Source: Escherichia phage EcoM1. From it: a stretch of 52,452 nucleotides of DNA. Every line of letters starts with the position of its first letter. The stretch's first letter is position 1. Positions 1 to 52,452 of this stretch are shown here, in pieces. The notes under the pieces are model-generated. The model had not been told where the DNA came from and ran no database searches. It saw nothing but the letters and a program-made list of their open reading frames with translations. The DNA lies in sequence record PQ818760.1. One strand, written 5' to 3'. The position numbers and the translations under genes are program-made.

Positions 1-1395
1 CTATAGAGTTGAGACTTGTTCATTTGACAGCGCATTGTCCCAAATACGAAGGGACCGTACAGCAAACTCTGCCCTTGTAATGGCAGAAGATTTGGTCCAC
101 GTCGATAGTGTTGGCCGACGGTTGTTGGAATCTATGCCTGGAATACTGTGCCTGGCCACAAGAACACCGTCAACAAATATTCTTGCAGTGGTGTCTGCCA
201 CTGTTACACAAATTCTGGACCATTTCCCGACAGTTGCGACAGCAGGACTAATAACCTTGGGAGTGTTTACAAGGACTCCTGACGGGTTTCGGTATCGCAG
301 AATGACGCCACCGTCAAAACATACGAGAACCTTCAAGGTTTCCATACCAAAGCCAAATTGCCAGTTACCATCCGCACCATCTTGAACAATCTTCGTATAG
401 TCTACACATATCGTGTACCTGGAACCATTCGACAATTGCGTATTGTTGAACCAGTTTATACCCGCAGAACCAACATCAGGAGATACAAAAGCCAGTGCCC
501 CACCAAGAGCCTCATTGTAGGCAGGTTCTGTTGCAAACGTATTGAAAATTCCAGCGCCACGAAGAATGTTTACAGACTTAATAAGCGACATTTCATATGC
601 CGGAAGTTCAACAGCATATCTCGGCTCTTGTGCTGCCTTCACATCTGGGAAGTTTAGTTCCGTAACAATATTAGACTTGCTCGAAGCAGTACCAGTTTCC
701 GCATTCCCTGTGGAATTATTGATGCCGAGGTAGTAGCTCCCATTACGAAGATACAATCCACCGTCATTAACAATCTGTGCAGTCTTAGAATCATTTAAGT
801 ACACAGTCGTGAAGGTTACTTCACCAGTGTATGCCCCACCAGTTACAGGAACAGCACCAACTTGAGTTGCAGTAAGTTTGTGTGGATTGTTGTAATCCGT
901 TACGTGTGCTTGAACCATTGCACGATAGTTGGCAACAATCGAATCAAGTTCGGATTTGTCATATGCACCAATTTGTGCAGCAGTTACTTTGTGCGGGTTT
1001 GTGGTTACATCTGCAATGTGCGCATTGATTGCTGCAACAATTGAGTCGTAATTTGCACGAGAAACTTGAATGGAGCTTGGACTCCACTGTGCAGAGTTCT
1101 CACTTGGGCGTAGTGTTTTGCTAGGGTTGGTGACAGTACAAACATAAATCGTTTTGTTTGTTTCGTCCCAAGCCAAACTACCAACGCCATAACTTACATC
1201 ACTGCCCCACTCAAAGATTCCACGTTCCGCTTGAGCAAGCATAGTGGTGTCAATCTTGTATTGCAGGTAGTTAAGAACCTGGTAAGTTGGTATCTCTGCA
1301 ACCCAGCCCTTGAGATATTTTGCATCGCCTGGGTCACGTCTTGCGACAGAGTTGTTTGAGGTCCAGACTCGGTTCAGTTTAGGACGAATTGCCAT
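1..1395 (-). CDS. tail fiber protein (distal fiber gene)
   Basis: Ends with TAG at window positions 1-3; ATG at 1393-1395 overlaps the upstream stop by 1 nt (track ORF extends to a TTG at 1464). Two NPHK(V/L)TA.Q(I/V)GA fibre-repeat-like motifs; last gene of the baseplate/fiber cluster. Call from context and motif only. Confidence 0.5.
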   Translation of the reverse strand: MAIRPKLNRVWTSNNSVARRDPGDAKYLKGWVAEIPTYQVLNYLQYKIDTTMLAQAERGIFEWGSDVSYGVGSLAWDETNKTIYVCTVTNPSKTLRPSENSAQWSPSSIQVSRANYDSIVAAINAHIADVTTNPHKVTAAQIGAYDKSELDSIVANYRAMVQAHVTDYNNPHKLTATQVGAVPVTGGAYTGEVTFTTVYLNDSKTAQIVNDGGLYLRNGSYYLGINNSTGNAETGTASSKSNIVTELNFPDVKAAQEPRYAVELPAYEMSLIKSVNILRGAGIFNTFATEPAYNEALGGALAFVSPDVGSAGINWFNNTQLSNGSRYTICVDYTKIVQDGADGNWQFGFGMETLKVLVCFDGGVILRYRNPSGVLVNTPKVISPAVATVGKWSRICVTVADTTARIFVDGVLVARHSIPGIDSNNRRPTLSTWTKSSAITRAEFAVRSLRIWDNALSNEQVSTL

Positions 1396-2543
1396 TATGG
1401 CCTCACTAACATTGATTGTTGATATGCGGTAAGAGTTGGGTAACAGGTAATTCTCTCGACCCAAACAGCAGAGGTGAATCCCATGTTTGTCAGTAGGGTT
1501 TCCATTGAAGTGTATCCAGCAGACGGAGCCTTTATGGACCTTGCTGTGATAAGATTTCCACCAGCATCTCTTCCGTACATGACGATTGACGTTGGGCAGG
1601 CAACATCAAAACCTTCGAAGGTTATTGTGTTGTCATCAACTTTAATCCCACCTTTGGGGTGAAATATTGGAGCATCCGACGTATTGATGGTCCACCCACG
1701 AGTTGACATGGCATCGTTGATAGATGTTTTCATGTTCATGTCGAGGTATGGTTGAGGCAGTGCGAACCTGTTTCCCCATCGGATTTGAAATTCCCAGTAA
1801 TTCAGTTCGGTCATCACTGGATATTCTTCACCACCAACTATGCTCCACAGAACATTGCCGAGTGCATCAATGGATAGAATCCTGTTACCTTCGCGCATCT
1901 CAATTCTACCATTTCCTGGGTTCATTCGGATTGAGATGTTTGTTTTAAACTTCATCCCACCAAGCAGTGACACTGGTCCAGAGAACTTACCGCCAGATGT
2001 TGGCAGTGTACCAAGCTGTTGAGGAGTTTCTTGGTGAACACGTCCAGTTTGCAGCTTGTGGTATACAATAGTTCTTGGGTCTGTTTTACTCCCAAAGGCA
2101 TCATCAATGGCAGACTTGTTGTAAGTCTTGTTTACTATAGTATCTACAGTATCCTTGTGTGGGTTGGTTGCAGCCAAGTGCCCATCGTAAATGGACTTCA
2201 AGTTGCTAATGTCATTAAGGTAATCAACCTTCTTAAGATTAAGTACCTCTTCCCAACCTGTGGCAGTATTAACACGAATAACACCATTAAGGGAAGACAC
2301 TGCACCAACCTGGTAGGTCACACTGGAATCAAACTCGGCGATACCACTAAACAAGAGCGAGATAATCTTCAAGTCACTAATCTGCGACAAGAAGTTTTGC
2401 CACTCGTTAGGTGGCTTCTCAACTTCCCAACCTAAGTCGGCATATCTGTTTTCGATAAAACTTGGTGCAGAGGTGTCCAAGTCCGGGTCTTTAACTTCAC
2501 CATCTTGCGCCCAGGGAAAATTAAACTTAAGACGTTGTGTCAT
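1395..2543 (-). CDS. tail fiber protein (proximal fiber gene)
   Basis: 382 aa; ATG overlaps upstream stop at 2543; has an ATNPHKDT motif like the next gene; sits after the J-like and I-like baseplate genes. Confidence 0.45.
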   Translation of the reverse strand: MTQRLKFNFPWAQDGEVKDPDLDTSAPSFIENRYADLGWEVEKPPNEWQNFLSQISDLKIISLLFSGIAEFDSSVTYQVGAVSSLNGVIRVNTATGWEEVLNLKKVDYLNDISNLKSIYDGHLAATNPHKDTVDTIVNKTYNKSAIDDAFGSKTDPRTIVYHKLQTGRVHQETPQQLGTLPTSGGKFSGPVSLLGGMKFKTNISIRMNPGNGRIEMREGNRILSIDALGNVLWSIVGGEEYPVMTELNYWEFQIRWGNRFALPQPYLDMNMKTSINDAMSTRGWTINTSDAPIFHPKGGIKVDDNTITFEGFDVACPTSIVMYGRDAGGNLITARSIKAPSAGYTSMETLLTNMGFTSAVWVERITCYPTLTAYQQSMLVRP

Positions 2544-5839: not shown

Positions 5840-6723
5840 AGGATACGTCCCTTGATAGAAGAAAGCGGAGAAGCAAGTTTACTCAACTTACCTTTCAAGT
5901 TGGATAACTGTTTGGTTGGAGGAGTGCCAAGAGCACCGAGTCCTGGGAGTGGAACACCTCCAAGAACACCCATACCCAAACTTTGAGCAACCTTCGCAAA
6001 TTCAGAATAATCAGACATTGATTCCATTGCCTTACGAGCTTCACTGGCAAGAACATCTTCACCTACTGTCTGCAATTCTTCAAATAAGATTTCAACTGAC
6101 AACATTGCAGAAGTCATCTTATCATGTTTGGTTTTGATTGAGGTTACTACACAATTCAAATAAGGCCCAAGAATGGTGGAAATGTATAACTTCTGCCCCG
6201 TAACACGGAAGCTGTTAAACAAATCGTAGGTAGACTGGATTCGGTTGCTTGTTTCAAATGCAGAAGCAACGCCACCAGCAATTCCACCAAGGATTGGGAT
6301 GATTGGGCTATTGAAGATTGCGCCAGAAGCAACAGATAAGCCTTGTACAGATGCAGACCACATGGAGGAGTTCTGCATGTTGACAGCAACGGCAGTCAGC
6401 TTAAGCACCCTGTTCTGATTAATAACATGGTCACTAACCATGAAGCCAGAACTAACAGGGAACTTGGTTACGGTTGTTTCAGACGCATGTTCTTCACTAA
6501 CCATCGCATCAAATTTAAAAGAGTTAAAACTTTCGGTGGCAGCTTCACCAACAACAGGCAAGCTCTCAAGCGATTTCGCAAATCCACCAAACAGTCCAGA
6601 TTCCTCTTCCTTCTGAGATGCAGGTCCGTTGGACCACATAACAATAGATGGATGATGCCCGTAGCTGAAATTCTTCAAGCCTTTGGACACACCACCAATG
6701 AGGTCGGTATCAAAGATAGACAT
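5836..6723 (-). CDS. tail/baseplate hub-associated protein
   Basis: 295 aa, ATGA overlap with next gene; between tape measure and spike genes. Confidence 0.3.
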   Translation of the reverse strand: MSIFDTDLIGGVSKGLKNFSYGHHPSIVMWSNGPASQKEEESGLFGGFAKSLESLPVVGEAATESFNSFKFDAMVSEEHASETTVTKFPVSSGFMVSDHVINQNRVLKLTAVAVNMQNSSMWSASVQGLSVASGAIFNSPIIPILGGIAGGVASAFETSNRIQSTYDLFNSFRVTGQKLYISTILGPYLNCVVTSIKTKHDKMTSAMLSVEILFEELQTVGEDVLASEARKAMESMSDYSEFAKVAQSLGMGVLGGVPLPGLGALGTPPTKQLSNLKGKLSKLASPLSSIKGRIL

Positions 6724-7832
6724 TAAAATGACTCCATTGCCATTCCACTGTTAGCATACATTTCCTGCCACGCAGCTTCCTTACCACCCATCATTGTATT
6801 ACCACCCAATATTGCAGTGATTGATGTTTGATAAATGGTTGAGTGAGTCGAACCTTTATGCACAACTTCCATGATGAAGTATTTGTCTTCAACAGCCCAC
6901 CGGAATACAGATTGGTCTGTGTTAAGAACAATGCCTTCCCCTGAAACAGAGGTTACACCATTGGCAAGCAGTTCGTCTCCCAGCAAAGGAGATACATCAA
7001 GAATCATCCCTGGTTGGAAAGATGGGTTTAGGAATGTGTTTAAAGTATAGGTGCAGATTCCAGCAACAGGATTTCCAATAACTGAGTTGGCATCCAGCTT
7101 AACTGGCTCTCTGTCTTTGGACATTCTGTTTACTGCATCTTTATCACCAAAAGTGTCTGGGAATATTTGAACTTCACCAGTTGTAACAGTGTATAGCAAA
7201 TTATATTCGCCAAGCATGTTACGAAATTCATTCAAGAATGTGTCGTGAAACACACGCCCACGAGGCATTACTGTTTCAAGGACTGAATCTTCAACACCAA
7301 ATGTGGAGATGGTATTGAATCCATAGTCAGAACACATTGAGCGCATTGCATCAATGAGCTTGGTTCCAGGCTTGATTGCTGTCAGCTGTTTGAAATCAGT
7401 TGATGCACCATATGCCTTAGAAATACAGAACAATTGTGTTACGTGTTCAGGAGGCTTTCTGTAGCCAACTGCGTTTGTGATAATGCCAGAGAAGATGGTT
7501 GGCAGCGAGGTGGACACTGTTACGCGGTCACTCTGTTCAGCCTTTTGACCAAACTTCTTAACACCACCACTAGAAGTCCCGCCACCAGAATCGGAGCGTT
7601 CATCTTCTGCATACCCTGCACGAATTTCAATATACATATCTCCGTAGGACTTGTCTTGGAGGAACTTAACTTCTTCTAACGACAAGTTAAACAGAGTTAT
7701 GTTTGCTGTATCGGCGGGCCACCCAACAGTAGAACGGACTTCAAAATCAATACGATGTGATTTAAATACCGTCCGAATGCTTGGGTCTTCTTTACGTGAA
7801 ACTATTACTTCAACTCTGCGTAGCCACGGCAT
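6723..7832 (-). CDS. tail protein (hub or DNA-circulation-like)
   Basis: 369 aa, first gene after the tape measure gene; preceded by a promoter-like element and a terminator-like hairpin. Confidence 0.3.
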   Translation of the reverse strand: MPWLRRVEVIVSRKEDPSIRTVFKSHRIDFEVRSTVGWPADTANITLFNLSLEEVKFLQDKSYGDMYIEIRAGYAEDERSDSGGGTSSGGVKKFGQKAEQSDRVTVSTSLPTIFSGIITNAVGYRKPPEHVTQLFCISKAYGASTDFKQLTAIKPGTKLIDAMRSMCSDYGFNTISTFGVEDSVLETVMPRGRVFHDTFLNEFRNMLGEYNLLYTVTTGEVQIFPDTFGDKDAVNRMSKDREPVKLDANSVIGNPVAGICTYTLNTFLNPSFQPGMILDVSPLLGDELLANGVTSVSGEGIVLNTDQSVFRWAVEDKYFIMEVVHKGSTHSTIYQTSITAILGGNTMMGGKEAAWQEMYANSGMAMESF

Positions 7833-18791: not shown

Positions 18792-20111
18792 TTAAGCTGA
18801 ACCAGGTTTTGGTTTTGCTTCACTTGCGTTACCCTTTTGGATGTTAGGAGGATTAGGATTTGGCTTACCAAGGCCACAAGTCCCGAACACGCCCGAATGG
18901 AACATGACTTCGTTTGCAACTTCAGTAGTTATGGTGCCGTTGTTAACCAGCAGGTCAACAGCGAATGCCAAATCTTTAGCTCGCTTCGCTTTCTCAACAT
19001 TGGATTCAGGGAAGATATCTAACCATTCGTAGTCATATTCTTCAATGCCAAAGTGCGCCTGGACAATCTTGTCTACCACATCTAAACGAGGGTCGAACAC
19101 AGAAGTCTGCAAGCCAGTCAACAAGTCGATATAGTTTACGAGGTCGGATTCGCCCGTAGCATTCATACCGTCTGGAGATGCAGAAAGGAAACGTGTAGCC
19201 GGAATACCAACTGCGGCAGCAACTATCTTTAAGTATTCCCAAATCAAATCTTTCACGCCAGATAGCGCAATTGACTTGGTGTCATACTTCTCAGTATTGT
19301 CGAGAATTAAGACGTTATAAATACTCTTTGCCAGCTTCATAAGTTTGAAGCGCTTCATCACAGCAGCTTCACCTTCCGGTGATGTAAGCAAGGATTGTAA
19401 GCCTTCAACAGTTACCACATCAATTGTGGCTTCTTGGGCAAGGCTGGCAGCAGCAGCGGCAGTTGTGTAGAATTGGTCAATCGTTTTCAGCAGTGGAATA
19501 AGTACCGAATCGGAATACCACATGTTGCGTTGGAATTCGAACAGCGGCAGTTCAGTACCCTCGAACCGAAGAAAGCGAGTGTAGTGGATATAGCCGGGAT
19601 ATCCAGCCAAAGTGTAATACTCTGGCAAACCATAGTGAGGACTTAAAGGGTCCAGAACCATAGTCCCTGCGGCAAATAAGCGTGAGCGGTCAATAACTCT
19701 CATGGATTTAATACATCCAGTCTTCAAGTTATCCAGTCGCAATGGTGTATCAAGTTTGCCCGTACCTTTCAGGTCGAGCAGAACAAATGAAGTACCATAC
19801 AATCTGGCCCATTGATATGCCTCACGGAACAGCTTGCGAATACGAAGTTTCTTATCCGCTCTGCGTCCTTCTTCACTATCAATATGTCGCCACTTACGCG
19901 TCATATCTTGAGGAATGACGGTACACACTTTCTGTGCAACCCAATCCTCACGGAAGCGGTTCATAAGTTCGCGATAGTTCGCGTTCTTGTTTGAGAAAGT
20001 CCACTGGTTGAAAGTAGACTTATCTGCTTGACCGCCTAACCCCGTTACAAGGTTTTCTAACCCATCTGCAACTTTAACAGAGAGATTGTTTTTCTTCTTC
20101 TTGGAAGTCAT
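18792..20111 (-). CDS. portal protein
   Basis: 439 aa immediately downstream of the terminase large subunit and upstream of scaffold/capsid genes. Confidence 0.6.
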   Translation of the reverse strand: MTSKKKKNNLSVKVADGLENLVTGLGGQADKSTFNQWTFSNKNANYRELMNRFREDWVAQKVCTVIPQDMTRKWRHIDSEEGRRADKKLRIRKLFREAYQWARLYGTSFVLLDLKGTGKLDTPLRLDNLKTGCIKSMRVIDRSRLFAAGTMVLDPLSPHYGLPEYYTLAGYPGYIHYTRFLRFEGTELPLFEFQRNMWYSDSVLIPLLKTIDQFYTTAAAAASLAQEATIDVVTVEGLQSLLTSPEGEAAVMKRFKLMKLAKSIYNVLILDNTEKYDTKSIALSGVKDLIWEYLKIVAAAVGIPATRFLSASPDGMNATGESDLVNYIDLLTGLQTSVFDPRLDVVDKIVQAHFGIEEYDYEWLDIFPESNVEKAKRAKDLAFAVDLLVNNGTITTEVANEVMFHSGVFGTCGLGKPNPNPPNIQKGNASEAKPKPGSA

Positions 20112-20335
20112 TATTTCTTCCTTAGAATAGTTCCATTACCCTTAACAATTTGAATGTTGTCGGAGGTGTGGAGTCGCAGATTTGACTCGTGCTTTAACTT
20201 AACACAGTCGCTCTCTGTGGTAGAAACTGCCTCAATCACACATAAAATGTTTCCTTCCAAATCTTGAATCTGGAAGGAGTTGTTCTTGCGTGAGCGGGCA
20301 TCTAAACGAGTGATAACCGCCATATTTACATCCAT
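20111..20335 (-). CDS. hypothetical protein
   Basis: 74 aa ORF overlapping the terminase 3' end and coupled to the portal start. Confidence 0.3.
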   Translation of the reverse strand: MDVNMAVITRLDARSRKNNSFQIQDLEGNILCVIEAVSTTESDCVKLKHESNLRLHTSDNIQIVKGNGTILRKK

Positions 20336-22371
20336 GCGGAGTAGTTGGCACTTGGGCCTGAGAATTCGATTGCAACCATATCTGAAACGTTATCGACACA
20401 ATCGTCGTGTCCAGTACCACTACCCAAAGAAGTGAATCCAAGTATTTCACGTCTAACGTGGTCGATGTGTTCATGACCAGCAGGGAAGAATATTCTCTTT
20501 TGTGAGAAATATGGGATTGCGTTAAGGAATCGAGTTACCTTGTCATTACCATTAATCCCATCACGAGGCAATGGTAAAACTCGGACACTCCCATCTCTGA
20601 TAAATTGTTGGTTCAAGAATTGTCCGGCAGACTTGTCTTCCATGTACAGTGCACGAGGAATACAACCTACACACTTCAAGTCCAACTTGTTGCATTTGTT
20701 CCAGAAGTCGATGATAGCAGTCTTGAGTTCTGGAGTTTCAAACTTACCAAGCATAATATCTAAACAATAAACATCACGCTCTTTAGTCACGCCCCAATGC
20801 TTAAGGACCGAATAATCAGAATAGGACTTGGCAGTTGATGCCGTATCCGCTGTAATAAAGCTTCTGACTATGCGACTTCTGTCGAAAACGTCTGGTTCAT
20901 ACTCTTGCCACCAATCTTCTTTGATAAGGCCGTGGCCTTGTGCAGATGGGTCGCCAGCATACTGTGAATTGTATGTGTATGGGTTAGACTCTTTCATTGC
21001 CTCCAGAGATTCTAAGCTCTTACGTGAAGGCCATAATGCAGACTTCTCTTCCTTCCTGTTCAAATTATACAGAATGGGAATAGCATGAGTGTAGTTCTGC
21101 TTCTTGATTAACTTATCATACCATTCAGCACTTCCAACTCCCTTCTCAATAATCGCTGGGATATTGAGATAGTGGTATTTGTCAGAAGAGCCGCCACGGA
21201 GTATATAACCAACTAAATCCTGGTCGTGAACTCGCTGCATGATGATAACCATTGGTGTACGGGCACACTTAATTTGGTTTCCGTACGAATCAGTTATGCA
21301 ACCATCGTTGGCAAGACGTGACATGAAGGTGTTATCAAATCGGTCGTTGATTTCTGCTCGAACTGTGTCAGAGTAGGCATCTTTAGGTTTGATAACGTCA
21401 TCCACCACGAAACAACCGGAGTATTTTGCAACAAGAAGTCCAGCACCTTTACCAGTTAACTTACCGCCAGTTGGTACTGCGTGCATAACTCCAGCTTTGG
21501 TTGTACCCCAACGTTCAAGAGAACGTTTGTTAGGGTCGATTCTCACCTTCGGGAATATGCGTTGGAACAGTGGGTCCATCATTACAGCACGGATGTAACC
21601 ACTCGATTCAAGAACAACGTCTTCTGCATACGAGGTGATAATGTTATGACTCGATTCATTGTGGCAAAATGAATACAAGGGCAATGCAATACTCATGAGC
21701 TGAGTCTTAGAGTGTCGTGGTGGAATGGTCACTATTAAGCGGTCAATCTCACCGTCAACAACCTTCTGACCAACACTGAATATTACATCGTGAAAGTCTT
21801 GTGCTTGAAATGGAAATCCCATCTGAATATGGAACTGCCATTTACCAAAGGCTTCGAAACTTTTCATCAAGATTTTGCGAACACGTTCTGCAACCTTGGC
21901 AGGGATTACAGTTGGGTCCACGTTATGTGGGTCATGCAGAATCTTGTCTACAAGTTCATCGGTGTTATCATGCTCCGAGTTTGGCTCCTCTAATGTGGAA
22001 CCTGCAACACGGTCAGTAACACCTGCTTGAATACCTTTCTTCAACTCATCTGCATAGGCAGTCGAGTCTTTCTTGTCGCCAGAGCGAAGACGCTCAAGTT
22101 GTGCTCTGAAAACGGAACGCAATACAGCATCGTTTTCAAGACCCTGGCCTTCTAACTCTGCTTGAATTTGTTCTTCATAGCTGTCAACTATTGCAGTATT
22201 TTCTGAAATATATCGACGGAGCAATGGCAAAGATAGAATACAGAATCTTTCTCTTGAGACTTTTAATACGTCACCGTAGTGTTTGGCGAGATACGAGGCT
22301 ACTGTATCATTAAACTCCGGTCCGAGGTCATCAGTCTTTGACATTGATTCGTTCTCTTTGTTTTTAATCAC
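20326..22371 (-). CDS. terminase large subunit
   Basis: 681 aa with Walker-A-like IPPRHSKTQ, Walker-B CFVVDDV, and C-terminal nuclease-like GHDDCVDNVSDM; upstream of portal. Track start is GTG at 22371; first ATG at 22344. Confidence 0.8.
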   Translation of the reverse strand: MIKNKENESMSKTDDLGPEFNDTVASYLAKHYGDVLKVSRERFCILSLPLLRRYISENTAIVDSYEEQIQAELEGQGLENDAVLRSVFRAQLERLRSGDKKDSTAYADELKKGIQAGVTDRVAGSTLEEPNSEHDNTDELVDKILHDPHNVDPTVIPAKVAERVRKILMKSFEAFGKWQFHIQMGFPFQAQDFHDVIFSVGQKVVDGEIDRLIVTIPPRHSKTQLMSIALPLYSFCHNESSHNIITSYAEDVVLESSGYIRAVMMDPLFQRIFPKVRIDPNKRSLERWGTTKAGVMHAVPTGGKLTGKGAGLLVAKYSGCFVVDDVIKPKDAYSDTVRAEINDRFDNTFMSRLANDGCITDSYGNQIKCARTPMVIIMQRVHDQDLVGYILRGGSSDKYHYLNIPAIIEKGVGSAEWYDKLIKKQNYTHAIPILYNLNRKEEKSALWPSRKSLESLEAMKESNPYTYNSQYAGDPSAQGHGLIKEDWWQEYEPDVFDRSRIVRSFITADTASTAKSYSDYSVLKHWGVTKERDVYCLDIMLGKFETPELKTAIIDFWNKCNKLDLKCVGCIPRALYMEDKSAGQFLNQQFIRDGSVRVLPLPRDGINGNDKVTRFLNAIPYFSQKRIFFPAGHEHIDHVRREILGFTSLGSGTGHDDCVDNVSDMVAIEFSGPSANYSAWM

Positions 22372-33244: not shown

Positions 33245-33454
33245 TCACTGTCGGGTAAGTTTCGAACACTTTTGTGCCCACGTTTCATTGTGGACTAAAA
33301 TCTGTGTTTTGGTTTCGCGTGACAGTATTTTCACTTCTGCAACATCCAAATATATTGGTTGTGCAATTAAGCAATAATCACTTACGAACCCACTTTGAGA
33401 GCAACTCACTATCGACATTGCTATCAGAACTGCTAGACACTTCTTTCTGAACAT
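33245..33454 (-). CDS. o-spanin (Rz1-like outer-membrane lipoprotein)
   Basis: 69 aa with lipoprotein signal ending SIVSC (lipobox-like), two further Cys; starts inside the i-spanin gene in another frame and extends beyond it. Confidence 0.5.
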   Translation of the reverse strand: MFRKKCLAVLIAMSIVSCSQSGFVSDYCLIAQPIYLDVAEVKILSRETKTQILVHNETWAQKCSKLTRQ

Positions 33455-33614
33455 GCGATTTAATCTCGATAGATTCTTTTAATGAATCTAGTTGCTTCTC
33501 TTTGGCTTCCTGACGCTCCTCGGCTTTGCCTGAGCTTTTGCCTTTGAGGAACACTGCAATAAGAATACCAAATGCAGTCAGGACGCCAAGAACTATTGAT
33601 TTAAGCTGTTGCAT
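33378..33614 (-). CDS. i-spanin (Rz-like)
   Basis: 78 aa: N-terminal transmembrane helix (IVLGVLTAFGILIAVFL) followed by a charged coiled-coil-like region; overlapped by the o-spanin frame. Confidence 0.55.
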   Translation of the reverse strand: MQQLKSIVLGVLTAFGILIAVFLKGKSSGKAEERQEAKEKQLDSLKESIEIKSHVQKEVSSSSDSNVDSELLSKWVRK

Positions 33615-38629: not shown

Positions 38630-39046
38630 TTATGCTGGAAGTTCGAAGTGCGGCATATCAATCAGCTTCTTCTTACCTGGTGCAAGTGGCGGATACGGCT
38701 GATTTTCATCAATACGGCTCCAATTCCCACCCCAACGAATGGTAATTCCAAGCTCTTTTGCAGCTTTGAACATATGGTGAGCTAAAACTTTGAATCGTTC
38801 GAGGTCATTCCAGTCAATTGGATATGGTGCAATGTCTAAAGCATTGCCTGACATGTGTCGGCTAACTGAAACTTTGGTTGCACCTTGCTTTAAAAGCTCT
38901 TGTTGACGCTCGTAGGTGCGCAAACCTTCGAGAACAGTTACATCAAACGGCATTGTTTCACATGCACGCTTGAAAACTGCCACCAATGAAGGGTTTACGC
39001 CCTTTAATCGGTCAAGAGAACGTTGGCCCAGCTTAACATTAGACAT
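38630..39046 (-). CDS. endolysin, peptidase M15 family (L-alanyl-D-glutamate peptidase-like)
   Basis: 138 aa with SRHMSGNALDI, DWNDLE and DMPHFE motifs, matching the zinc-binding H..D...H arrangement and the size of T5-type endolysins. Confidence 0.8.
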   Translation of the reverse strand: MSNVKLGQRSLDRLKGVNPSLVAVFKRACETMPFDVTVLEGLRTYERQQELLKQGATKVSVSRHMSGNALDIAPYPIDWNDLERFKVLAHHMFKAAKELGITIRWGGNWSRIDENQPYPPLAPGKKKLIDMPHFELPA

Positions 39047-46743: not shown

Positions 46744-48684
46744 TTACTGACAGAAGTAGTAAGCGTGTTCGCTCATCAGCAACTCTTCTGTAACAATGTT
46801 CTCATGATACATCTGAATGCCACCAAGTTGCTTAGACAGATTCTCGAATTGATTGTTGGTTACAAAGATTTCAACATATGCTGCACGAATAACTTCCATC
46901 ATACGTGGAGCATCTGCCAGACAGCAACGGAAACAATCATGGATTGAAGTAAAGCCACGAAGACCAGCCTCTTTAGCTTTAACTGCAACAGTACGAGCAA
47001 CCAATGCGTCAATACCTTGAATGTAGTTAACAACGAAAGTACGCTTGAATTCTTCTTTAGTTGGATTGGATTCACGAATGGTCCAAGGCTTATTCTCCTG
47101 AATCTGGCCAAAGATAACACGAGTTTGAGAGTCAACACGAATGCTGAATGCCTCACAGATTTCACGAGATGGGAAGCAAGGCTTCATTACAACCTGACCA
47201 TCAGTGTGACGATATGTGATGTACTCTTTACCAAGTTCAACACAACGGTTGTATGCAGCATCAGCAGCCTTCTCAATGAACATGTTAATCTTAGCACCCA
47301 ATGCGTTATGGATTGCTTCTACACACAGTTCAGCAAATGCCTCAGCTTTCTCCATAGGAATCTGGAGCGCTTCTGTCATGTAGCTAATGAAGTCAGATGA
47401 ACCAGTTAATGCAGCTTTACCACCACCATATTGAATAGCCATGTACGGAGTTTTGATAAACTTACGACCAGCTTTCGGATTCAAGAATTCATCCATGATT
47501 TCAGGAGATGGTTTCATTGAAGAACGGTCTAATAACTTCAACAGTTCACGAAGAGATAACTGGTATGGGTCAGATGCTTTAGTCTCAGAATCAACCAGAC
47601 CTGTTGCACGAGCCATTTCCATGTTACCAGCAATGAATGCCAGATATTGAGTACCAGAACATTTAGCATCTAGGCCAAAGCCTACACGAGAATCGCACTC
47701 ACCTGTAGTCTCAAACTTGAACCAATCCAGAGCCAGACGAACATAAGTGAATGGCTTGGAAGGACGTTCAGCTTTAGGCATGTTCATCATGCGAGCAAGT
47801 GAACCAGCTGGATTCTGAGCAACATAAGTTAAACGCTTAGCAGTACACCATTCACCACCCGAAATATCTTCCAGCTCTGCCATGAACATGTTGTATGCAA
47901 TGGTAGTAGAACCATCTTCGTTAAACTTCTTAACGATGTTCTCAACATTGTGAGAATACAAGCAACGAGCAAAGTCAGATGATTGTGGGTTAGGACCAGC
48001 ACATGCTACATGATACAGACGACCACGGTTATCAGCAAAGTAGTCAGAGTACAGCTTATCCTGATTCATCATTGCTACAGCATTGTTCCAAACATGGAGT
48101 TCAGTCTGGATTGCTTCTGGCATCTGCAAGCCACCATAAGTACGTTGCTCAATCATGGACTGGATGATGCGAACCATCTCAGTCTCCACATGGTACTCAG
48201 TATCTTGCAGGAATTCGATTGCAGCTTTCAGAGTTTTGGATGGCTTAACTTTGCCACCTTTAACGAAAGGCTTGCGACGAGATTCAGATGTAACACGCTC
48301 AGTGAATGGCACTGCTGTGTCTTTGGTTGTAACCAGCTCAACCCATGTGTCAGTCTGTTGGAATGACTTGTCTTCGTTCATGGTGATGAAGCCAAAGTGC
48401 TTAGCCAGACCAATGAGGTTGATAGCTGGGTCAACATAGTGCATTGCTTTCAAATCGTTGTTATAACGGTTGGCATCAGCAATAGAAGCAGAAGCCAGCT
48501 CAACCATCGCGATGGCAGGAACAACGTCATCACGAGTGAAAGACGTCATCATCTTGAAGATGGCTAAGGCAGCAATAGCACAAGTCTGAGGCTGCATATA
48601 GTTCTGTTTCTCTTTGGCACGGTATACCAGAGCAGTGATAGCAGGAACAACGGATTTGATAGTTTGAGTAGTGATAGTAGTCAT
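46744..48684 (-). CDS. single-subunit DNA-dependent RNA polymerase (T7-type)
   Basis: 646 aa with the three catalytic motifs of T7-class polymerases: LDAKCSGTQYLAFIAG (T7 DGSCSGIQHF, motif A), KTPYMAIQYGGGK (T7 KRSVMTLAYGSK, O-helix K/Y), TSIHDCFRCC (T7 LIHDSFGT, motif C). Shorter than T7 RNAP (883 aa). ATG start with GGAG 9 nt upstream. Confidence 0.85.
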   Translation of the reverse strand: MTTITTQTIKSVVPAITALVYRAKEKQNYMQPQTCAIAALAIFKMMTSFTRDDVVPAIAMVELASASIADANRYNNDLKAMHYVDPAINLIGLAKHFGFITMNEDKSFQQTDTWVELVTTKDTAVPFTERVTSESRRKPFVKGGKVKPSKTLKAAIEFLQDTEYHVETEMVRIIQSMIEQRTYGGLQMPEAIQTELHVWNNAVAMMNQDKLYSDYFADNRGRLYHVACAGPNPQSSDFARCLYSHNVENIVKKFNEDGSTTIAYNMFMAELEDISGGEWCTAKRLTYVAQNPAGSLARMMNMPKAERPSKPFTYVRLALDWFKFETTGECDSRVGFGLDAKCSGTQYLAFIAGNMEMARATGLVDSETKASDPYQLSLRELLKLLDRSSMKPSPEIMDEFLNPKAGRKFIKTPYMAIQYGGGKAALTGSSDFISYMTEALQIPMEKAEAFAELCVEAIHNALGAKINMFIEKAADAAYNRCVELGKEYITYRHTDGQVVMKPCFPSREICEAFSIRVDSQTRVIFGQIQENKPWTIRESNPTKEEFKRTFVVNYIQGIDALVARTVAVKAKEAGLRGFTSIHDCFRCCLADAPRMMEVIRAAYVEIFVTNNQFENLSKQLGGIQMYHENIVTEELLMSEHAYYFCQ

Positions 48685-48752
48685 TTGTAAGTCTCCAAGA
48701 TTGTGTATGATTTAACTGAAACGGATTATAATAGCGTAGCCATTACACAATT

Positions 48753-48770
48753 CACTTCCAACTAATATCA
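48753..48770 (-). promoter_or_regulatory. phage promoter-like element upstream of the polymerase gene
   Basis: + strand cacttccaactaatatca, 69 nt upstream of the polymerase ATG; a TATAAT hexamer lies between it and the gene. Confidence 0.35.
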
Positions 48771-48909
48771 CAAACCTGTGCCATTGTTACAACAGCACGG
48801 AGACTTTGACCTTGACCTATAAGCGAAGCGCCTAACTTGGTGTTGTTTGAAAGCCGATAGGCTTTAGGAAAAAGTTGGGGTAGGGACCGTATTTTAAGTC
48901 CGATAGGAC

Positions 48910-49270
48910 GTTGGGCTTCCCCTCCTCGGAGATAAAAATTTTAAAATAATAATGTCACAACTTCCCCTCCTCGCTGGCCCAAAAATAAAAATTATAATTT
49001 TGCCACAATTCTAGTCTCATTAATATTGTAGCAATTTGAGTCTCATTAATTCCGTAACAATATTCGAAATAAAAAAAATTATATAAAAATTTTTATAACA
49101 TAGTCGGACTTCTGTTGTTACTTCGTAACGGGTTCGAACAAATTTCGGCTAGATACAGCTGACCGACCGTGAACGAATCTATATCCAGGTACAGTTGACC
49201 GACCATGTACCATTTGGTTTTGAACTTTACGCATTCCTAATATTACTTTAAATATTGTAGCAATATTGGG
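48910..49270 (-). repeat. AT-rich non-coding block with paired direct repeats
   Basis: Duplicated cttcccctcctcg (48916, 48961), (t/g)agtctcattaat (49012, 49038), ACAG(C/T)TGACCGACC(G/A)TG (49155, 49191), aatattgtagcaat (49022, 49251), and long A/T runs. Coordinates anchored on the polymerase start and the nrdB stop. Confidence 0.45.
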
Positions 49271-49384
49271 AATAAGTAATATTTAACTTTACTTATTTTA
49301 TTCTAGCTCAAAGAGAAACGACGCTAACGCATCGAATCTCTTCTCGCATATTAACTGACAAACGTCAGCCCTCACCGTATCCAA

Positions 49385-50485
49385 TCATAATTCAAATCCA
49401 CCTAGAGCATTGGTATCCACTTCGGAGTCAATCTGCCCGACAAGGTACGAACTAATCTCCGTTTCCTGCGGAGCAACCTGTACAGCATCCGAATTCAACC
49501 ATGCGTTAATCCACGGAATCGGGTTAGTAGCACCTTTGAATGGAGCATCTAATCCAACTGCTTGCATACGAATATTCGTGATATATTCCACATATCCGCA
49601 CAGAATTTGCTTGTTTAAGCCAATCATTGAGCCATCTTTGAACAGATAATCAGCCCAATCTTTCTCTTGTTGGGCCACATTTTCGAACATTTCTTGGCAT
49701 TCTTGACGGCATTCTTTAGCAATTTCGGCCATTTCTGGGTCATCAACACCACTTGCAAGAAGGTTCAGCATGTGTTGAGTTCCGGTCAAATGGAGTGCTT
49801 CATCACGAGCAATTAAGCGAATAATCTTGGCATTTCCTTCCATTAACTTGCGTTCAGCGAAGGCAAATGAGCAAGCAAAGCTGACATAAAAGCGGATTGC
49901 TTCCAGTGCATTGATAGACATGAGGCATAAATACAGCTTCTTCTTAAGCTCACGAAGAGAAACTTTATCTTCATGCAGATGCCACATGGAAGTTAGATGT
50001 TGAAGCTCGTCATAATATTGGGAGATGCCAATTGCACGCATTTTAATATGCTCATTCTCCACAATTTCATCGAAAATTGCGCTTGGGTCTGTCACGATAT
50101 TACGAATAATATGCGTGTAAGAACGAGAATGAATTGTCTCTGAGAATGACCAAGTTTCAATCCAAGTTTCAAGCTCAGGAATGCTCACAATTGGTAGCAA
50201 AACTGTAGTTGGTCCGCGTCCTTGAATAGAATCAAGCAGGATTTGGTATCGTAAATTGCTGGTGAAAATGTGTTTCTCACACTCAGGAAGACCAGCATAG
50301 TCAATTCGGTCCTGGCTAACATCAACCTCCTCAGGTCGCCAAAAGAAAGACAACTGCTTCTCGATTAACTTCTCGAAGATGCTGTACTTCTGTTGGTCAT
50401 ATCGAGCAACGTTAACGTTCTGACCAAAGAACATTGGCTCTAGTAGTTGGTTATTCTTGGTTTGTGAAAAGGTAGTGTAAGCCAT
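49385..50485 (-). CDS. nrdB: ribonucleotide reductase class Ia beta subunit
   Basis: [15 protein letters not shown] with the E-x2-H-x3-Y iron/tyrosyl-radical arrangement, a second carboxylate-His site (RDEALH), and upstream Asp/Glu ligands; 366 aa. Confidence 0.9.
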
Positions 50486-51039
50486 TACAGATTTCCTAGA
50501 TACTCATAGAATTTATGGCCACCATAACGTCCCAAACCTTTTACATTCTTGAAGTTACACTTCTCCGATGCTGTACAAAAGTGGGTTGCTTTGGTGACAG
50601 AGGGTTGATTAAATAATACAAAAGAGATTGCAACATTAATGGTGTCCAGAACTTGTTGTTGTTCTGTGGCATAATTAATCTTTGCTACATGCTTCCATTG
50701 AGCATTCTTCTTCTTTGCTTCTCGTGTCCATGCAAATTGATTGCGTTGATAGACAACATCACAAACGGTGTTAGCGAATGGCTTCCCGAACTCTGTTCTA
50801 TTGCGGACGACATTAGCTACCAGAATCTTTCCATGTTTGTCTTCTCCGCGAGCCTCATACCAGATAACTTTAGTGTAGCATTCTAGCTCTTTGCGTTGTG
50901 AAGAAGATAGTTTCAGACTTCCATTTAAATAAGAATGACTTGCAAAATCTGTAATAGCAGAATTCACTGCCCCAACCGAAGCTGGGGCGTTGATGTGAAC
51001 TAAAGCTGTCAGAAGTGCAAGAACTTTGAATGATAGCAT
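50485..51039 (-). CDS. secreted cell-wall hydrolase, CwlJ/SleB-like
   Basis: N-terminal signal peptide ([24 protein letters not shown]) then [24 protein letters not shown] and [11 protein letters not shown], matching the CwlJ/SleB catalytic-domain signature; immediately downstream of the holin. Confidence 0.7.
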
Positions 51040-51056
51040 TCGAGTTCCTTATCATT

Positions 51057-51398
51057 TCATCGTGCCTTCTTGAACCACGTTAAAGGGTTAAGTTGTTTGA
51101 TTGCGCCAGAGAAGCTTTCCCTGACAGTTGTGATAATGAGGTTTGCACCGATGACACCAATCACGATAGCCAGAACTAACTGCATTGTGACGTTAGTGGT
51201 GAAAGTTTCAAACGTGCCAGCAACATGAAAGGCAAACAAGCCAATCAAGCTGCATAGCGCTGCATCCAGCAACGCTTTGCTTAAACCTTCACTTTCGTAT
51301 GCACCACGGATTAAAGCCGTCAGACCAGCCAGCAGCCCATGCCATACGCCATACTGGTGCATCAGGTCCACAAACATCTGAATGGATAAGCGTTCCAT
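51057..51398 (-). CDS. holin, lambda-S-like class I
   Basis: From MERLSIQMF...: three hydrophobic segments and LIRGAYESEGLSKALLDAALCSLIGLFAF aligning with lambda S ([28 protein letters not shown]). An in-frame upstream Met (MPSGNGWLKEIM) gives a possible dual-start antiholin form; track ORF extends to 51506. Confidence 0.7.
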   Translation of the reverse strand: MERLSIQMFVDLMHQYGVWHGLLAGLTALIRGAYESEGLSKALLDAALCSLIGLFAFHVAGTFETFTTNVTMQLVLAIVIGVIGANLIITTVRESFSGAIKQLNPLTWFKKAR

Positions 51399-51405
51399 GA
51401 TTTCC

Positions 51406-52452
51406 TTAAGCCACCCGTTTCCAGAAGGCATAATAGTGGGACGAGTTGCGCACGTTAAGCGCCGCGCCGTCACCAGTTGAGGTTGTAGTGTTGTTGCTAG
51501 GACCACCCGTGGTTAGTGCCGTGCCTCCCGTACTTCCTGCACTAGAGCCGCCACTTGTACCTGTGAAGTTAGGCAAGTCAACAGAGTGCGTGTGGTTGCC
51601 ATTAGCATTGGCTGTACCGCTAATGCTGTGGGTATGGTTGCCAGCACCGTTTGTCGAGCCAACGTGTGTCTGAGCAGAGTTTGAGGAAGCAACCCTACCA
51701 GAACGTACGTTGGCGTTATCACCCTGAGATATTGGGTGGGAGTGCTCACCAGCAGCGTTAGCTGTGCCACTAAGCGAGTGGTCGTGCCAACCAGCGGTGC
51801 TGGTGTTCACTGCCCCGTGGTCGTGGTTGATTGTGTGAGTGTGGGACATCGTGTGGGAGTGGGCTGCAATACCGTGAGTGTGGTTTTGCATTCCGTGTGT
51901 GTGGCCCGGCAAGTTGGCTACAGCAATGCTGGCAGTATCTGACCCAGCTACTGAACCAATCTGCCCATCAGCCGTCCCAGCTTCCGGACCAGTCGCAGCA
52001 CGGGCAGTACGACCATCAGTGATTTGTTCCCACACAGTACCGGTGAATGTGTTGTTCGGGTTGGTGGCATTATCAAACTTGAGGACAATACCGATTGGAT
52101 AGATTGCATTATAAATGTTGTTTGCATTTATAAGCTCCACCCAATTCCCAAATGCCTCACTATCTGCGGCATAGTTTTGGCTACGAACCCAGCAACGCAA
52201 TGTGCCGTATGTCGTATATCGTTGCATCACCCTACCAAACTTATTGGCGCTGTGAGGCAACACTTCAAGAGTTCCTGCCTGAGCACCTGCTGGGTAATTG
52301 TTTGAAGTCGTGGCATAAGCATTGGACGATTGGTAATACACACCTACACTGTCCATTCCCGTGAGGGTGTCCAATTTTGTATTGTCCAGGTTGGTACGAG
52401 ACTTCATGTAGTGCTCGTCAACCAGTGCATCTAAAGAATAGCCTTTAGCCAT
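51406..52452 (-). CDS. fiber-like protein with His-x-His repeats
   Basis: 348 aa; ATG is the last three bases of the window; C-terminal half has about 10 HxH motifs (GHTHGMQNHTHGIAAHSHTMSHTHTINHDH...NHTHSISG...NHTHSV) like metal-binding fiber tip domains. Assignment by motif analogy. Confidence 0.4.
   Translation of the reverse strand: MAKGYSLDALVDEHYMKSRTNLDNTKLDTLTGMDSVGVYYQSSNAYATTSNNYPAGAQAGTLEVLPHSANKFGRVMQRYTTYGTLRCWVRSQNYAADSEAFGNWVELINANNIYNAIYPIGIVLKFDNATNPNNTFTGTVWEQITDGRTARAATGPEAGTADGQIGSVAGSDTASIAVANLPGHTHGMQNHTHGIAAHSHTMSHTHTINHDHGAVNTSTAGWHDHSLSGTANAAGEHSHPISQGDNANVRSGRVASSNSAQTHVGSTNGAGNHTHSISGTANANGNHTHSVDLPNFTGTSGGSSAGSTGGTALTTGGPSNNTTTSTGDGAALNVRNSSHYYAFWKRVA

Follow-up and report, generated by a model that had tools for sequence, protein, structure and literature searches.

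A holin–SleB-type hydrolase cassette in the late operon of Escherichia phage EcoM1 as part of a putative three-locus lysis system

We analyzed a 52,452-nucleotide stretch of DNA from Escherichia phage EcoM1 (PQ818760.1), referred to here as the window, in which a holin gene is directly followed by a gene for a cell wall hydrolase of the CwlJ/SleB type. We lean, to a modest degree, towards the interpretation that this pair serves a Carltongylesvirus as its lysis cassette in the late operon and belongs to a lysis system spread over three loci, the hydrolase of which would be exported by the Sec pathway and cleaved. The cassette itself is already known, as its genes are annotated genes of a known genus and have been discussed in print. 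As a finding it thus adds little, the genes being identical or nearly identical to deposited ones and their arrangement published, and its residual value lies in lysis biology.

The holin and the SleB-type hydrolase

Both genes were confirmed on the minus strand at the positions given in the initial annotation, which had also assigned the holin to class I of the lambda S family. This assignment is well supported. The holin (51057..51398, minus strand, 113 amino acids) matched PF05106 (Phage_holin_3_1) with 33.3 bits against a cut-off of 23.8 (E-value 6.8e-8) and phrog_126 (holin/anti-holin) with an E-value of 1.2e-17, and BLASTP aligned its residues 22-94 with lambda S at 26% identity (E-value 6e-7). 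The match to TIGR01594 (holin_lambda) had an E-value of 3e-7 and lies below the cut-off of that model. According to a hydropathy heuristic, the protein contains three uncharged stretches (residues 12-30, 46-63, and 65-92), the first of which is weakly hydrophobic as in lambda S, and it ends in a basic tail (...WFKKAR). PF05106 was present in all of the collected holin homologues (99/99). The start codon is located 7 nt past the stop codon of the tail-fibre gene, and the Shine-Dalgarno sequence AAGGA read in front of it (51403..51407, minus strand) overlaps that stop codon, TAA (51406..51408).

The holin had further been suggested to carry a dual start with the motif MPSGNGWLKEIM. This was not confirmed. 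The motif is present in the sequence but outside the coordinates given for the cassette (ATG at 51431..51429), within the tail-fibre gene. The minus-strand junction reads ...CAC TAT TAT GCC TTC TGG AAA CGG GTG GCT TAA GGAAATC ATG GAA CGC.... The upstream ATG, 11 codons 5' of the annotated one, is made by the tail-fibre codons TAT-GCC (Tyr-Ala), lacks a Shine-Dalgarno sequence, and was rejected as a start. The N-terminal extension that it would add, MPSGNGWLKEI, holds one Lys and one Glu and hence no net charge, unlike the Met-Lys-Met of lambda. No in-frame start was present within four codons of the annotated holin ATG in EcoM1, and Met8 was rejected as a second start as it is not conserved among the homologues. 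Many holin homologues begin with M-[DE]-x-K-M-[DE]-R (e.g., MEKQMERQ and MDNKMERH; alignment columns 20-30), which resembles lambda in offering two starts, spaced four codons from each other, on either side of a Lys; EcoM1 has CTT (Leu) at the first position. A dual start may thus exist in the holins of related phages, but it is not supported in EcoM1.

The hydrolase gene (50485..51039, minus strand) encodes a precursor of 184 amino acids and 20.7 kDa, a SleB-type wall hydrolase and putative lytic transglycosylase endolysin. Its Shine-Dalgarno sequence AAGGA (51046..51050, minus strand, by sequence reading) lies in the 17-nt spacer that follows the TGA stop codon of the holin gene. The domain search proposed in the initial annotation confirmed the CwlJ/SleB type: PF07486 (Hydrolase_2) was matched above the curated threshold (58.5 against 27 bits, E-value 1.1e-15) over 100/100 profile positions, and phrog_938 (endolysin) with an E-value of 4.8e-20. 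For holin and hydrolase alike, E-values of this size are well outside what chance would produce. The Pfam envelope covers residues 65-178 (50506..50847, minus strand), and the motif WYE62ARGE66, which aligns with YGESRGE of SleB, is found just upstream of the domain at its N-terminal edge. To assess conservation, 63 homologues of 98% to 44% identity were collected, all about 173-190 amino acids long save two partial sequences, and 59 of them were aligned. Glu62 and Glu66 are invariant in 59/59 homologues, as are some 30 further positions. By the alignment with SleB, Glu62 is the catalytic glutamate, and it is intact in the EcoM1 enzyme.

The sole solved relatives found by sequence were the SleB catalytic domains 4F55 and 4FET. 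These were also the top Foldseek matches (probability 1.00, TM-score 0.61-0.64) of an AlphaFold2 model built from the 59 homologues (pLDDT 86, pTM 0.81), the next matches being unrelated with probabilities below 0.2. With TIGR02869, the SleB equivalog model, the score was 29.4 bits against a cut-off of 236.5 and only residues 45-105 were aligned, indicating that the enzyme is not SleB proper. No peptidoglycan-binding domain was found in the domain search. Cys54 and Cys93 are invariant in 59/59 homologues, while Cys155 and Cys161 are both present in 56 and both absent in 3. The C54/C93 pair is also found in the signal-bearing homologue of T5-like phages, and Bacillus SleB has Leu and Ser instead. 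As the cysteines are kept or lost in pairs, as expected in an exported protein, periplasmic disulfides C54-C93 and C155-C161 are probable. SleB-type enzymes of Bacillus need muramic-delta-lactam, which is absent from E. coli, and the substrate of the EcoM1 hydrolase must be the vegetative E. coli wall, not spore cortex.

A CwlJ/SleB-type partner had been regarded as unusual for a holin, a view that the wider record contradicts. Hydrolase_2 dominates, together with Glyco_hydro_19 and Phage_lysozyme, among the lysins of Gram-negative phages (PMC8223927), the enzyme type has its own PHROG endolysin family, and tblastn with the EcoM1 hydrolase gave matches in 680 phage records. The protein shares 100% identity with the annotated endolysin of PO103-1 and 98.9% with its SA91KD counterpart. 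In GenBank the enzyme of the pair is labelled as 'endolysin', 'SAR endolysin' (signal-arrest-release; Mangalitsa), 'spore cortex-lytic enzyme' (SKA49), or 'lytic transglycosylase' (PP101 and Pel53). The searchable literature on Chaseviridae and on Hydrolase_2 endolysins of Gram-negative phages yielded no experimental study of this enzyme. Two candidates were set aside: the Pantoea PA1 paper concerns an unrelated lysozyme-like enzyme and the 57_3Lys preprint a SAR lysozyme of Drexlerviridae.

Export signal of the hydrolase and the distant lysis genes

Residues 1-24 of the hydrolase (50968..51039, minus strand) are predicted to form a Sec signal peptide, based on the family alignment and the lengths of the hydrophobic cores, i.e., on heuristics and comparison of homologues rather than a dedicated predictor. 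The n-region is MLSFK, the h-region VLALLTALV(HI), and the c-region NAPASVGA with Pro at -6. Cleavage is likely to occur after Ala24 (VGA↓VN) and would leave a mature protein of about 18.3 kDa. Neither a lipobox Cys nor a twin arginine is present in residues 1-24, and a lipoprotein or Tat signal was rejected on these grounds. In the structural model residues 1-20 have low pLDDT, and a conserved helix spanning residues 22-38, with the invariant A33, Y37, and L38 (and G40), is part of the folded domain.

What the N-termini of the homologues have in common is not their sequence but a layout in which a short, basic n-region precedes an apolar core and a polar c-region. The c-region is usually N-x-P-A-S-x-G-A, so that Pro falls at -6 and positions -3/-1 are taken by small residues; the h-region is variable and PASxGA is conserved. 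Signal-peptidase sites in relatives include TQHALA↓HSS (P0060), FQSHA↓NFE (P0062/63), AQSAEA↓MPD (P0041), NTSALA↓TAD (Erwinia phage Fifi44), PQKAMA↓SKG (pAh6-C gp31), and FSSQA↓SHD (T5-like Bf23), the AMA↓S and SQA↓S types among them. The cleavable-looking signal peptide that had been noted at the outset is thus well founded in its three-region layout, its AxA-type site with Pro at -6, and the cleavage sites of the relatives.

The initial annotation had left the choice between Sec export and a SAR-type endolysin, and of these the former is favoured and the latter disfavoured. The uninterrupted apolar core is 9 residues long in EcoM1 and 9-13 residues in 58/59 homologues (median 11). By comparison, the P1 Lyz and R21 SAR domains have cores of 20 residues, and the signal peptides of OmpA, PhoA, and MalE have cores of 8-18 residues. 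The KD19 maximum of the EcoM1 hydrolase is 1.64 against at least 2.07 in the SAR references, and the comparison with these reference sequences is indicative only. In several homologues a charged residue is found 11-14 positions into the hydrophobic stretch (E17 in P0024 and K20 in pAh6-C gp31), which rules out a membrane span in them. Taken together, these features make a cleaved Sec signal peptide appear more likely than a SAR anchor.

The hydrolase had also been taken for the single lysis partner of the holin. This does not hold, as an M15 peptidase and spanins are coded at other loci. The peptidase (38630..39046, minus strand, 138 amino acids), located in the early/middle region, is an L-alanyl-D-glutamate peptidase of the T5 endolysin type. 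It was identified by tblastn, PF13539 (E-value 1.4e-8), and its relatives in the PDB (8Q2G, E-value 1e-23; 2MXZ, EndoT5, E-value 5.5e-20), and it is 82% identical to Mangalitsa gp22 in tblastn and 100% identical to its ST32 counterpart. No transmembrane-like segment and no hydrophobic N-terminus were seen in it. Lacking the latter, it would wait in the cytoplasm for the holin hole. The lambda-type, large-hole holin therefore has an obvious client, and the 'pinholin' label becomes unnecessary. This label, used in the SKA49 paper, is not supported by the make-up of the EcoM1 holin either, which is homologous to lambda S and has three segments.

The i-spanin (33378..33614, minus strand, 78 amino acids) has an N-terminal membrane anchor (transmembrane-like segment at residues 3-27) and is 92% identical to Mangalitsa gp37, an 'Rz-like spanin'. 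Its gene is overlapped by that of the o-spanin (33245..33454, minus strand, 69 amino acids), which carries the lipobox IVSC and is 97% identical to Mangalitsa gp38. In the Mangalitsa record, the early/middle part of the genome likewise contains another 'endolysin', resembling the L-alanyl-D-glutamate peptidase of T5, along with overlapped Rz-like spanins, and the spanins of phiEcoM-GJ1 are listed in PMC6139136. With the M15 peptidase 11 kb and the spanins 17 kb away from the holin, the genes do not form a contiguous cassette of the SRRzRz1 type. The members of the spanin pair, far from the holin, are at 78 and 69 amino acids also much below the size of lambda Rz (153 amino acids).

The adjacency of holin and hydrolase is kept in relatives down to 44-49% identity and across genera, and in Chaseviridae the Hydrolase_2 gene starts 12-17 nt after the holin across genera. 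The pair is conserved in Pectobacterium phage PP101 (Suwonvirus), in which no M15 homologue was found by tblastn. Instead, PP101 encodes a signal-less CHAP-domain wall hydrolase (6340..6816) in the slot that M15 has in Carltongylesvirus; it is located three genes before the antirestriction gene, and M15 two genes before it in Mangalitsa. Judged by this position, M15 is replaced in PP101 by an unrelated CHAP fold. Among the Erwinia phages of Loessnervirus, the holin-Hydrolase_2 pair is found in Fifi44 and the M15 peptidase, at 65% identity, in Nougat. In the unannotated genome of Aeromonas phage pAh6-C, which belongs to the other subfamily (Nefertitivirinae), the M15 peptidase gp30 adjoins the signal-bearing Hydrolase_2 protein gp31 (18872..20387), just past the tail-fibre genes and beside small membrane proteins. 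The two come after gp28 (133 amino acids, one N-terminal transmembrane segment) and gp29 (55 amino acids), and the group is likely a complete lysis cluster, although no PF05106 holin was found there.

Beyond the Chaseviridae, Hydrolase_2 is paired with a separate GH24 lysozyme in the Phapecoctaviruses, and T5-like phages (Demerecviridae) have, as does EcoM1, both an M15 peptidase and a signal-bearing SleB homologue in one genome. The latter resembles the EcoM1 hydrolase in its signal peptide (MKAALLLVAALTFSFSSQA↓SHD) and its equivalents of C54/C93. The arrangement in EcoM1 is reversed: here the SleB-type gene adjoins the holin gene and M15 lies elsewhere, whereas in T5-like phages M15 adjoins the holin and SleB lies elsewhere (PMC11180984). 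In T5-like Bf23 a SleB 'cell wall hydrolase' with a signal peptide (1447..1896) is situated behind a predicted early promoter. The secreted SleB-like enzyme of these phages may be made early without causing lysis and be tolerated long in the periplasm. That a secreted SleB-like enzyme is accompanied by another wall enzyme lacking a signal seems to be a recurrent solution and not an accident of the EcoM1 genome.

Genome setting and layout of the late operon

The minus strand carries all long open reading frames (ORFs) of the window, and the 3.1 kb around the cassette share 87-94% DNA identity with ST32, TH53, Bp10, phiEcoM-GJ1, flopper, SKA49, and Mangalitsa. On sequence grounds, the window is a Carltongylesvirus genome (Chaseviridae, Cleopatravirinae). 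The order on the minus strand is tail fibre, holin, hydrolase, nrdB, a terminator-like hairpin, and a T7-like RNA polymerase, and the succession of tail fibre, holin, endolysin, and nrdB is the same in the Carltongylesvirus relatives. The genes are tightly coupled, with gaps of 7 nt between fibre and holin and 17 nt between holin and hydrolase, and a TAATG overlap between hydrolase and nrdB. This order agrees with the earlier placement of the cassette at the end of the late region, except that nrdB, not the lysin gene, is the final gene of the late operon.

The tail-fibre gene (51406..52452, minus strand), directly 5' of the holin gene, was identified by phrog_2097 (E-value 2.8e-40) and PF21939. 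The fibre's C-terminal part, which matches PF21939 (Gp10_C), is rich in His-x-His repeats (HTHGMQNHTHGIAAHSHTMSHTHTINHDHG...) and recalls metal-binding fibre tips. On the other side of the cassette, nrdB (49385..50485, minus strand; PF00268, E-value 1.6e-49) encodes the small subunit of ribonucleotide reductase. Its ATG is read as overlapping the hydrolase stop codon and, to judge by this overlap, nrdB is translationally coupled to the lysin gene. The gene is odd here both in its place and as a solo gene of nucleotide metabolism, and the Mangalitsa record contains no annotated large subunit.

About 50 nt 3' of nrdB, a consensus scan detected the terminator-like hairpin (49319..49334, minus strand). 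It is the only terminator-like site in the region, yet the count is not above the shuffle expectation, which makes it weak evidence. A promoter scan of 48600..52452, which excludes promoters of phage RNA polymerases, showed no enrichment (8 sites against a shuffle mean of 7.7), and a tRNA scan found no tRNA genes. The T7-like RNA polymerase ORF (46744..48684, minus strand) comprises 646 amino acids counted from the first ATG, while the Mangalitsa homologue is annotated with about 704 amino acids (211..2325) and falls within a terminal repeat of 3.2 kb that PhageTerm predicts.

Proposed course of lysis and comparison with known systems

In the lysis system that we propose, tail fibre, holin, hydrolase, and nrdB would be transcribed as a single late message. 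The hydrolase would be exported by Sec during its synthesis and cut by signal peptidase I around Ala24, after which the mature protein of approximately 18 kDa would fold in the periplasm, form the disulfides C54-C93 and C155-C161, and be able to cut the N-acetylmuramic acid–N-acetylglucosamine (MurNAc-GlcNAc) backbone as a lytic transglycosylase. Meanwhile, the M15 peptidase would build up in the cytoplasm. Triggering of the holin would then collapse the membrane potential and open large holes through which the peptidase is released, and it would probably also unleash the hydrolase already in the periplasm. Glycan bonds and peptide bonds of the wall would both come under attack, and the outer membrane would be finished by the spanins, which would fuse the membranes.

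Several points weigh against this proposal. A free, active lysin in the periplasm should lyse the cell early unless something restrains it. Conceivable restraints are the energised membrane, as for Lys44 of phage fOg44, a need for the peptidase to trim the wall first, or a residual tethering of the enzyme. The pairing of the disulfides is deduced from co-variation, and the M15 peptidase could do all of the essential work. Furthermore, Mangalitsa gp80 is annotated as 'SAR endolysin' in GenBank, and the 25 residues between K5 and D31 lack charges and abound in Ala, Ser, Gly, and Asn, so that a weak anchor is conceivable.

The last two points lead to the explanation that the hydrolase is a SAR endolysin working with a pinholin: an uncleaved anchor would tether the inactive enzyme until depolarisation frees it, as with P1 Lyz or R21/S21. 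The SKA49 paper describes a putative SAR endolysin with a pinholin (PMC10282059), and a tether would neatly explain why the exported enzyme is harmless before triggering. We nevertheless hold this explanation to be rather improbable. The apolar cores of 58/59 homologues are much shorter than the reference SAR domains (9-13 against 20 residues), the hydrophobic stretch is broken by His, Asn, and Pro and followed by conserved AxA-type sites with Pro at -6, and several homologues place a charge 11-14 residues into the segment. In addition, the holin is a three-segment relative of lambda S and not a two-segment pinholin, and the signal-less M15 peptidase of the same genome requires large holes for its exit. 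The published 'SAR endolysin' and 'pinholin' labels are in-silico calls that our analysis does not support.

Another explanation overlaps with the proposed system and differs from it mainly in which enzyme is essential. Here the true endolysin is the M15 peptidase, and the role of the Hydrolase_2 protein in the periplasm is accessory: it would be dispensable for lysis, just as the T5-like homologue may be, and would serve a faster breakdown of the wall or its remodelling for another purpose. The endolysin of T5 itself is a homologous M15 peptidase (2MXZ), a lambda-type holin suits a cytoplasmic endolysin, and Hydrolase_2 stands beside a separate lysozyme in the Phapecoctaviruses. The T5-like SleB homologue, away from the holin and near a predicted early promoter, also implies that the exported enzyme is tolerated long without lysis. 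On the other hand, it is Hydrolase_2 and not M15 that holds the place 12-17 nt after the holin across the genera of Chaseviridae, PP101 has retained Hydrolase_2 while M15 is replaced by the CHAP enzyme, and the catalytic residues of Hydrolase_2 are invariant. We consider a merely accessory role unlikely, though with a real chance of being correct. That the protein is no lysis enzyme at all, but for example a virion-associated or superinfection-related wall modifier next to the holin, could be argued from the need of Bacillus SleB-type enzymes for a muramic-delta-lactam that E. coli does not have. This seems highly improbable in view of the tight coupling to the holin near the end of the late operon, the conserved synteny, the clustering of Hydrolase_2 with M15 and membrane proteins in pAh6-C, the membership of the hydrolase in a PHROG endolysin family, and the signal peptide, which is ill-suited to a virion protein.

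We give a slim chance to one further, speculative idea, substrate gating. It is suggested by the specificity of SleB/CwlJ for cortex, which has no peptide stems, and by the constant presence of a peptidase alongside the enzyme. The processed, soluble hydrolase might be harmless in the periplasm because it cuts only peptide-trimmed glycan, and the peptidase (or CHAP enzyme) released by the holin might license it. The GH24 partner found in the Phapecoctaviruses weakens this idea. If true, it would amount to a two-enzyme, two-route lysis common to Chaseviridae and T5-like phages and undescribed for Gram-negative phages.

In the current picture of Gram-negative phages, holins free cytoplasmic endolysins, and depolarisation frees SAR endolysins. 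Neither case comfortably accommodates a lysin that has an ordinary cleaved signal peptide and is combined with a large-hole holin and a second peptidase in the cytoplasm. Confirmation of the proposed system would raise the questions of what checks a free periplasmic lysin and why SleB-like enzymes with a signal are so regularly accompanied by another wall enzyme. The labels 'SAR endolysin' and 'pinholin', which are spreading in the annotations of Carltongylesvirus phages, would also be corrected, and for the mining of antibacterial enzymes it would follow that the mature form and not the precursor should be expressed. Our analysis adds the preference for Sec over SAR, the split lysis system, its apparent recurrence in Chaseviridae and T5-like phages, and the rejected dual start, all read from sequence; that phages of this type have two wall hydrolases (an L-Ala-D-Glu peptidase and another enzyme 'in holin-hydrolase combination') and a distant spanin is already stated in the SKA49 paper (PMC10282059).

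Compared with known systems, the pairs of other Carltongylesvirus phages (PO103-1, SA91KD, ST32, phiEcoM-GJ1, Mangalitsa gp79/gp80, and SKA49 ORF70/71) consist of the same genes as in EcoM1 without substantive difference. The holin is homologous to lambda S from the end of the first transmembrane domain through the third, and both proteins have three hydrophobic segments and a basic C-terminus, but the Met-Lys-Met dual start of lambda has no equivalent in EcoM1. In lambda, the gene immediately downstream of the holin encodes a soluble cytoplasmic transglycosylase, which the downstream partner in EcoM1 is not, and the SRRzRz1 genes form one adjoining cluster, whereas those of EcoM1 are dispersed. 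With Bacillus SleB/CwlJ (PF07486; 4F55 and 4FET) the hydrolase has the catalytic fold and the Glu motif in common. It is, however, only 18-21% identical to SleB, lacks the N-terminal peptidoglycan-binding domain of the latter, and differs further by a Gram-negative signal peptide and two additional Cys pairs.

With the SAR endolysins P1 Lyz and R21, the EcoM1 hydrolase has in common a holin-independent export by Sec and the presence of a holin in the genome. SAR domains are about 20 residues long, weakly hydrophobic, and uncleaved, while in EcoM1 a core of 9 residues is followed by a signal-peptidase-type site, and the catalytic folds differ as well, being T4-lysozyme-like in the SAR endolysins and SleB-like in EcoM1. 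Lys44 of Oenococcus phage fOg44, which São-José et al. are said to have described in 2000, is reportedly a Sec-exported endolysin whose signal peptide is cleaved and for which the holin acts as the trigger. The proposed EcoM1 system would resemble it in having a lysin that leaves the cytoplasm through Sec and loses its signal peptide, with the holin serving as trigger and not as export route. The two differ in the Gram-positive host of fOg44 and in the unrelated catalytic domain of Lys44; processing and dependence on the proton motive force have reportedly been demonstrated for Lys44 and are inferred for EcoM1.

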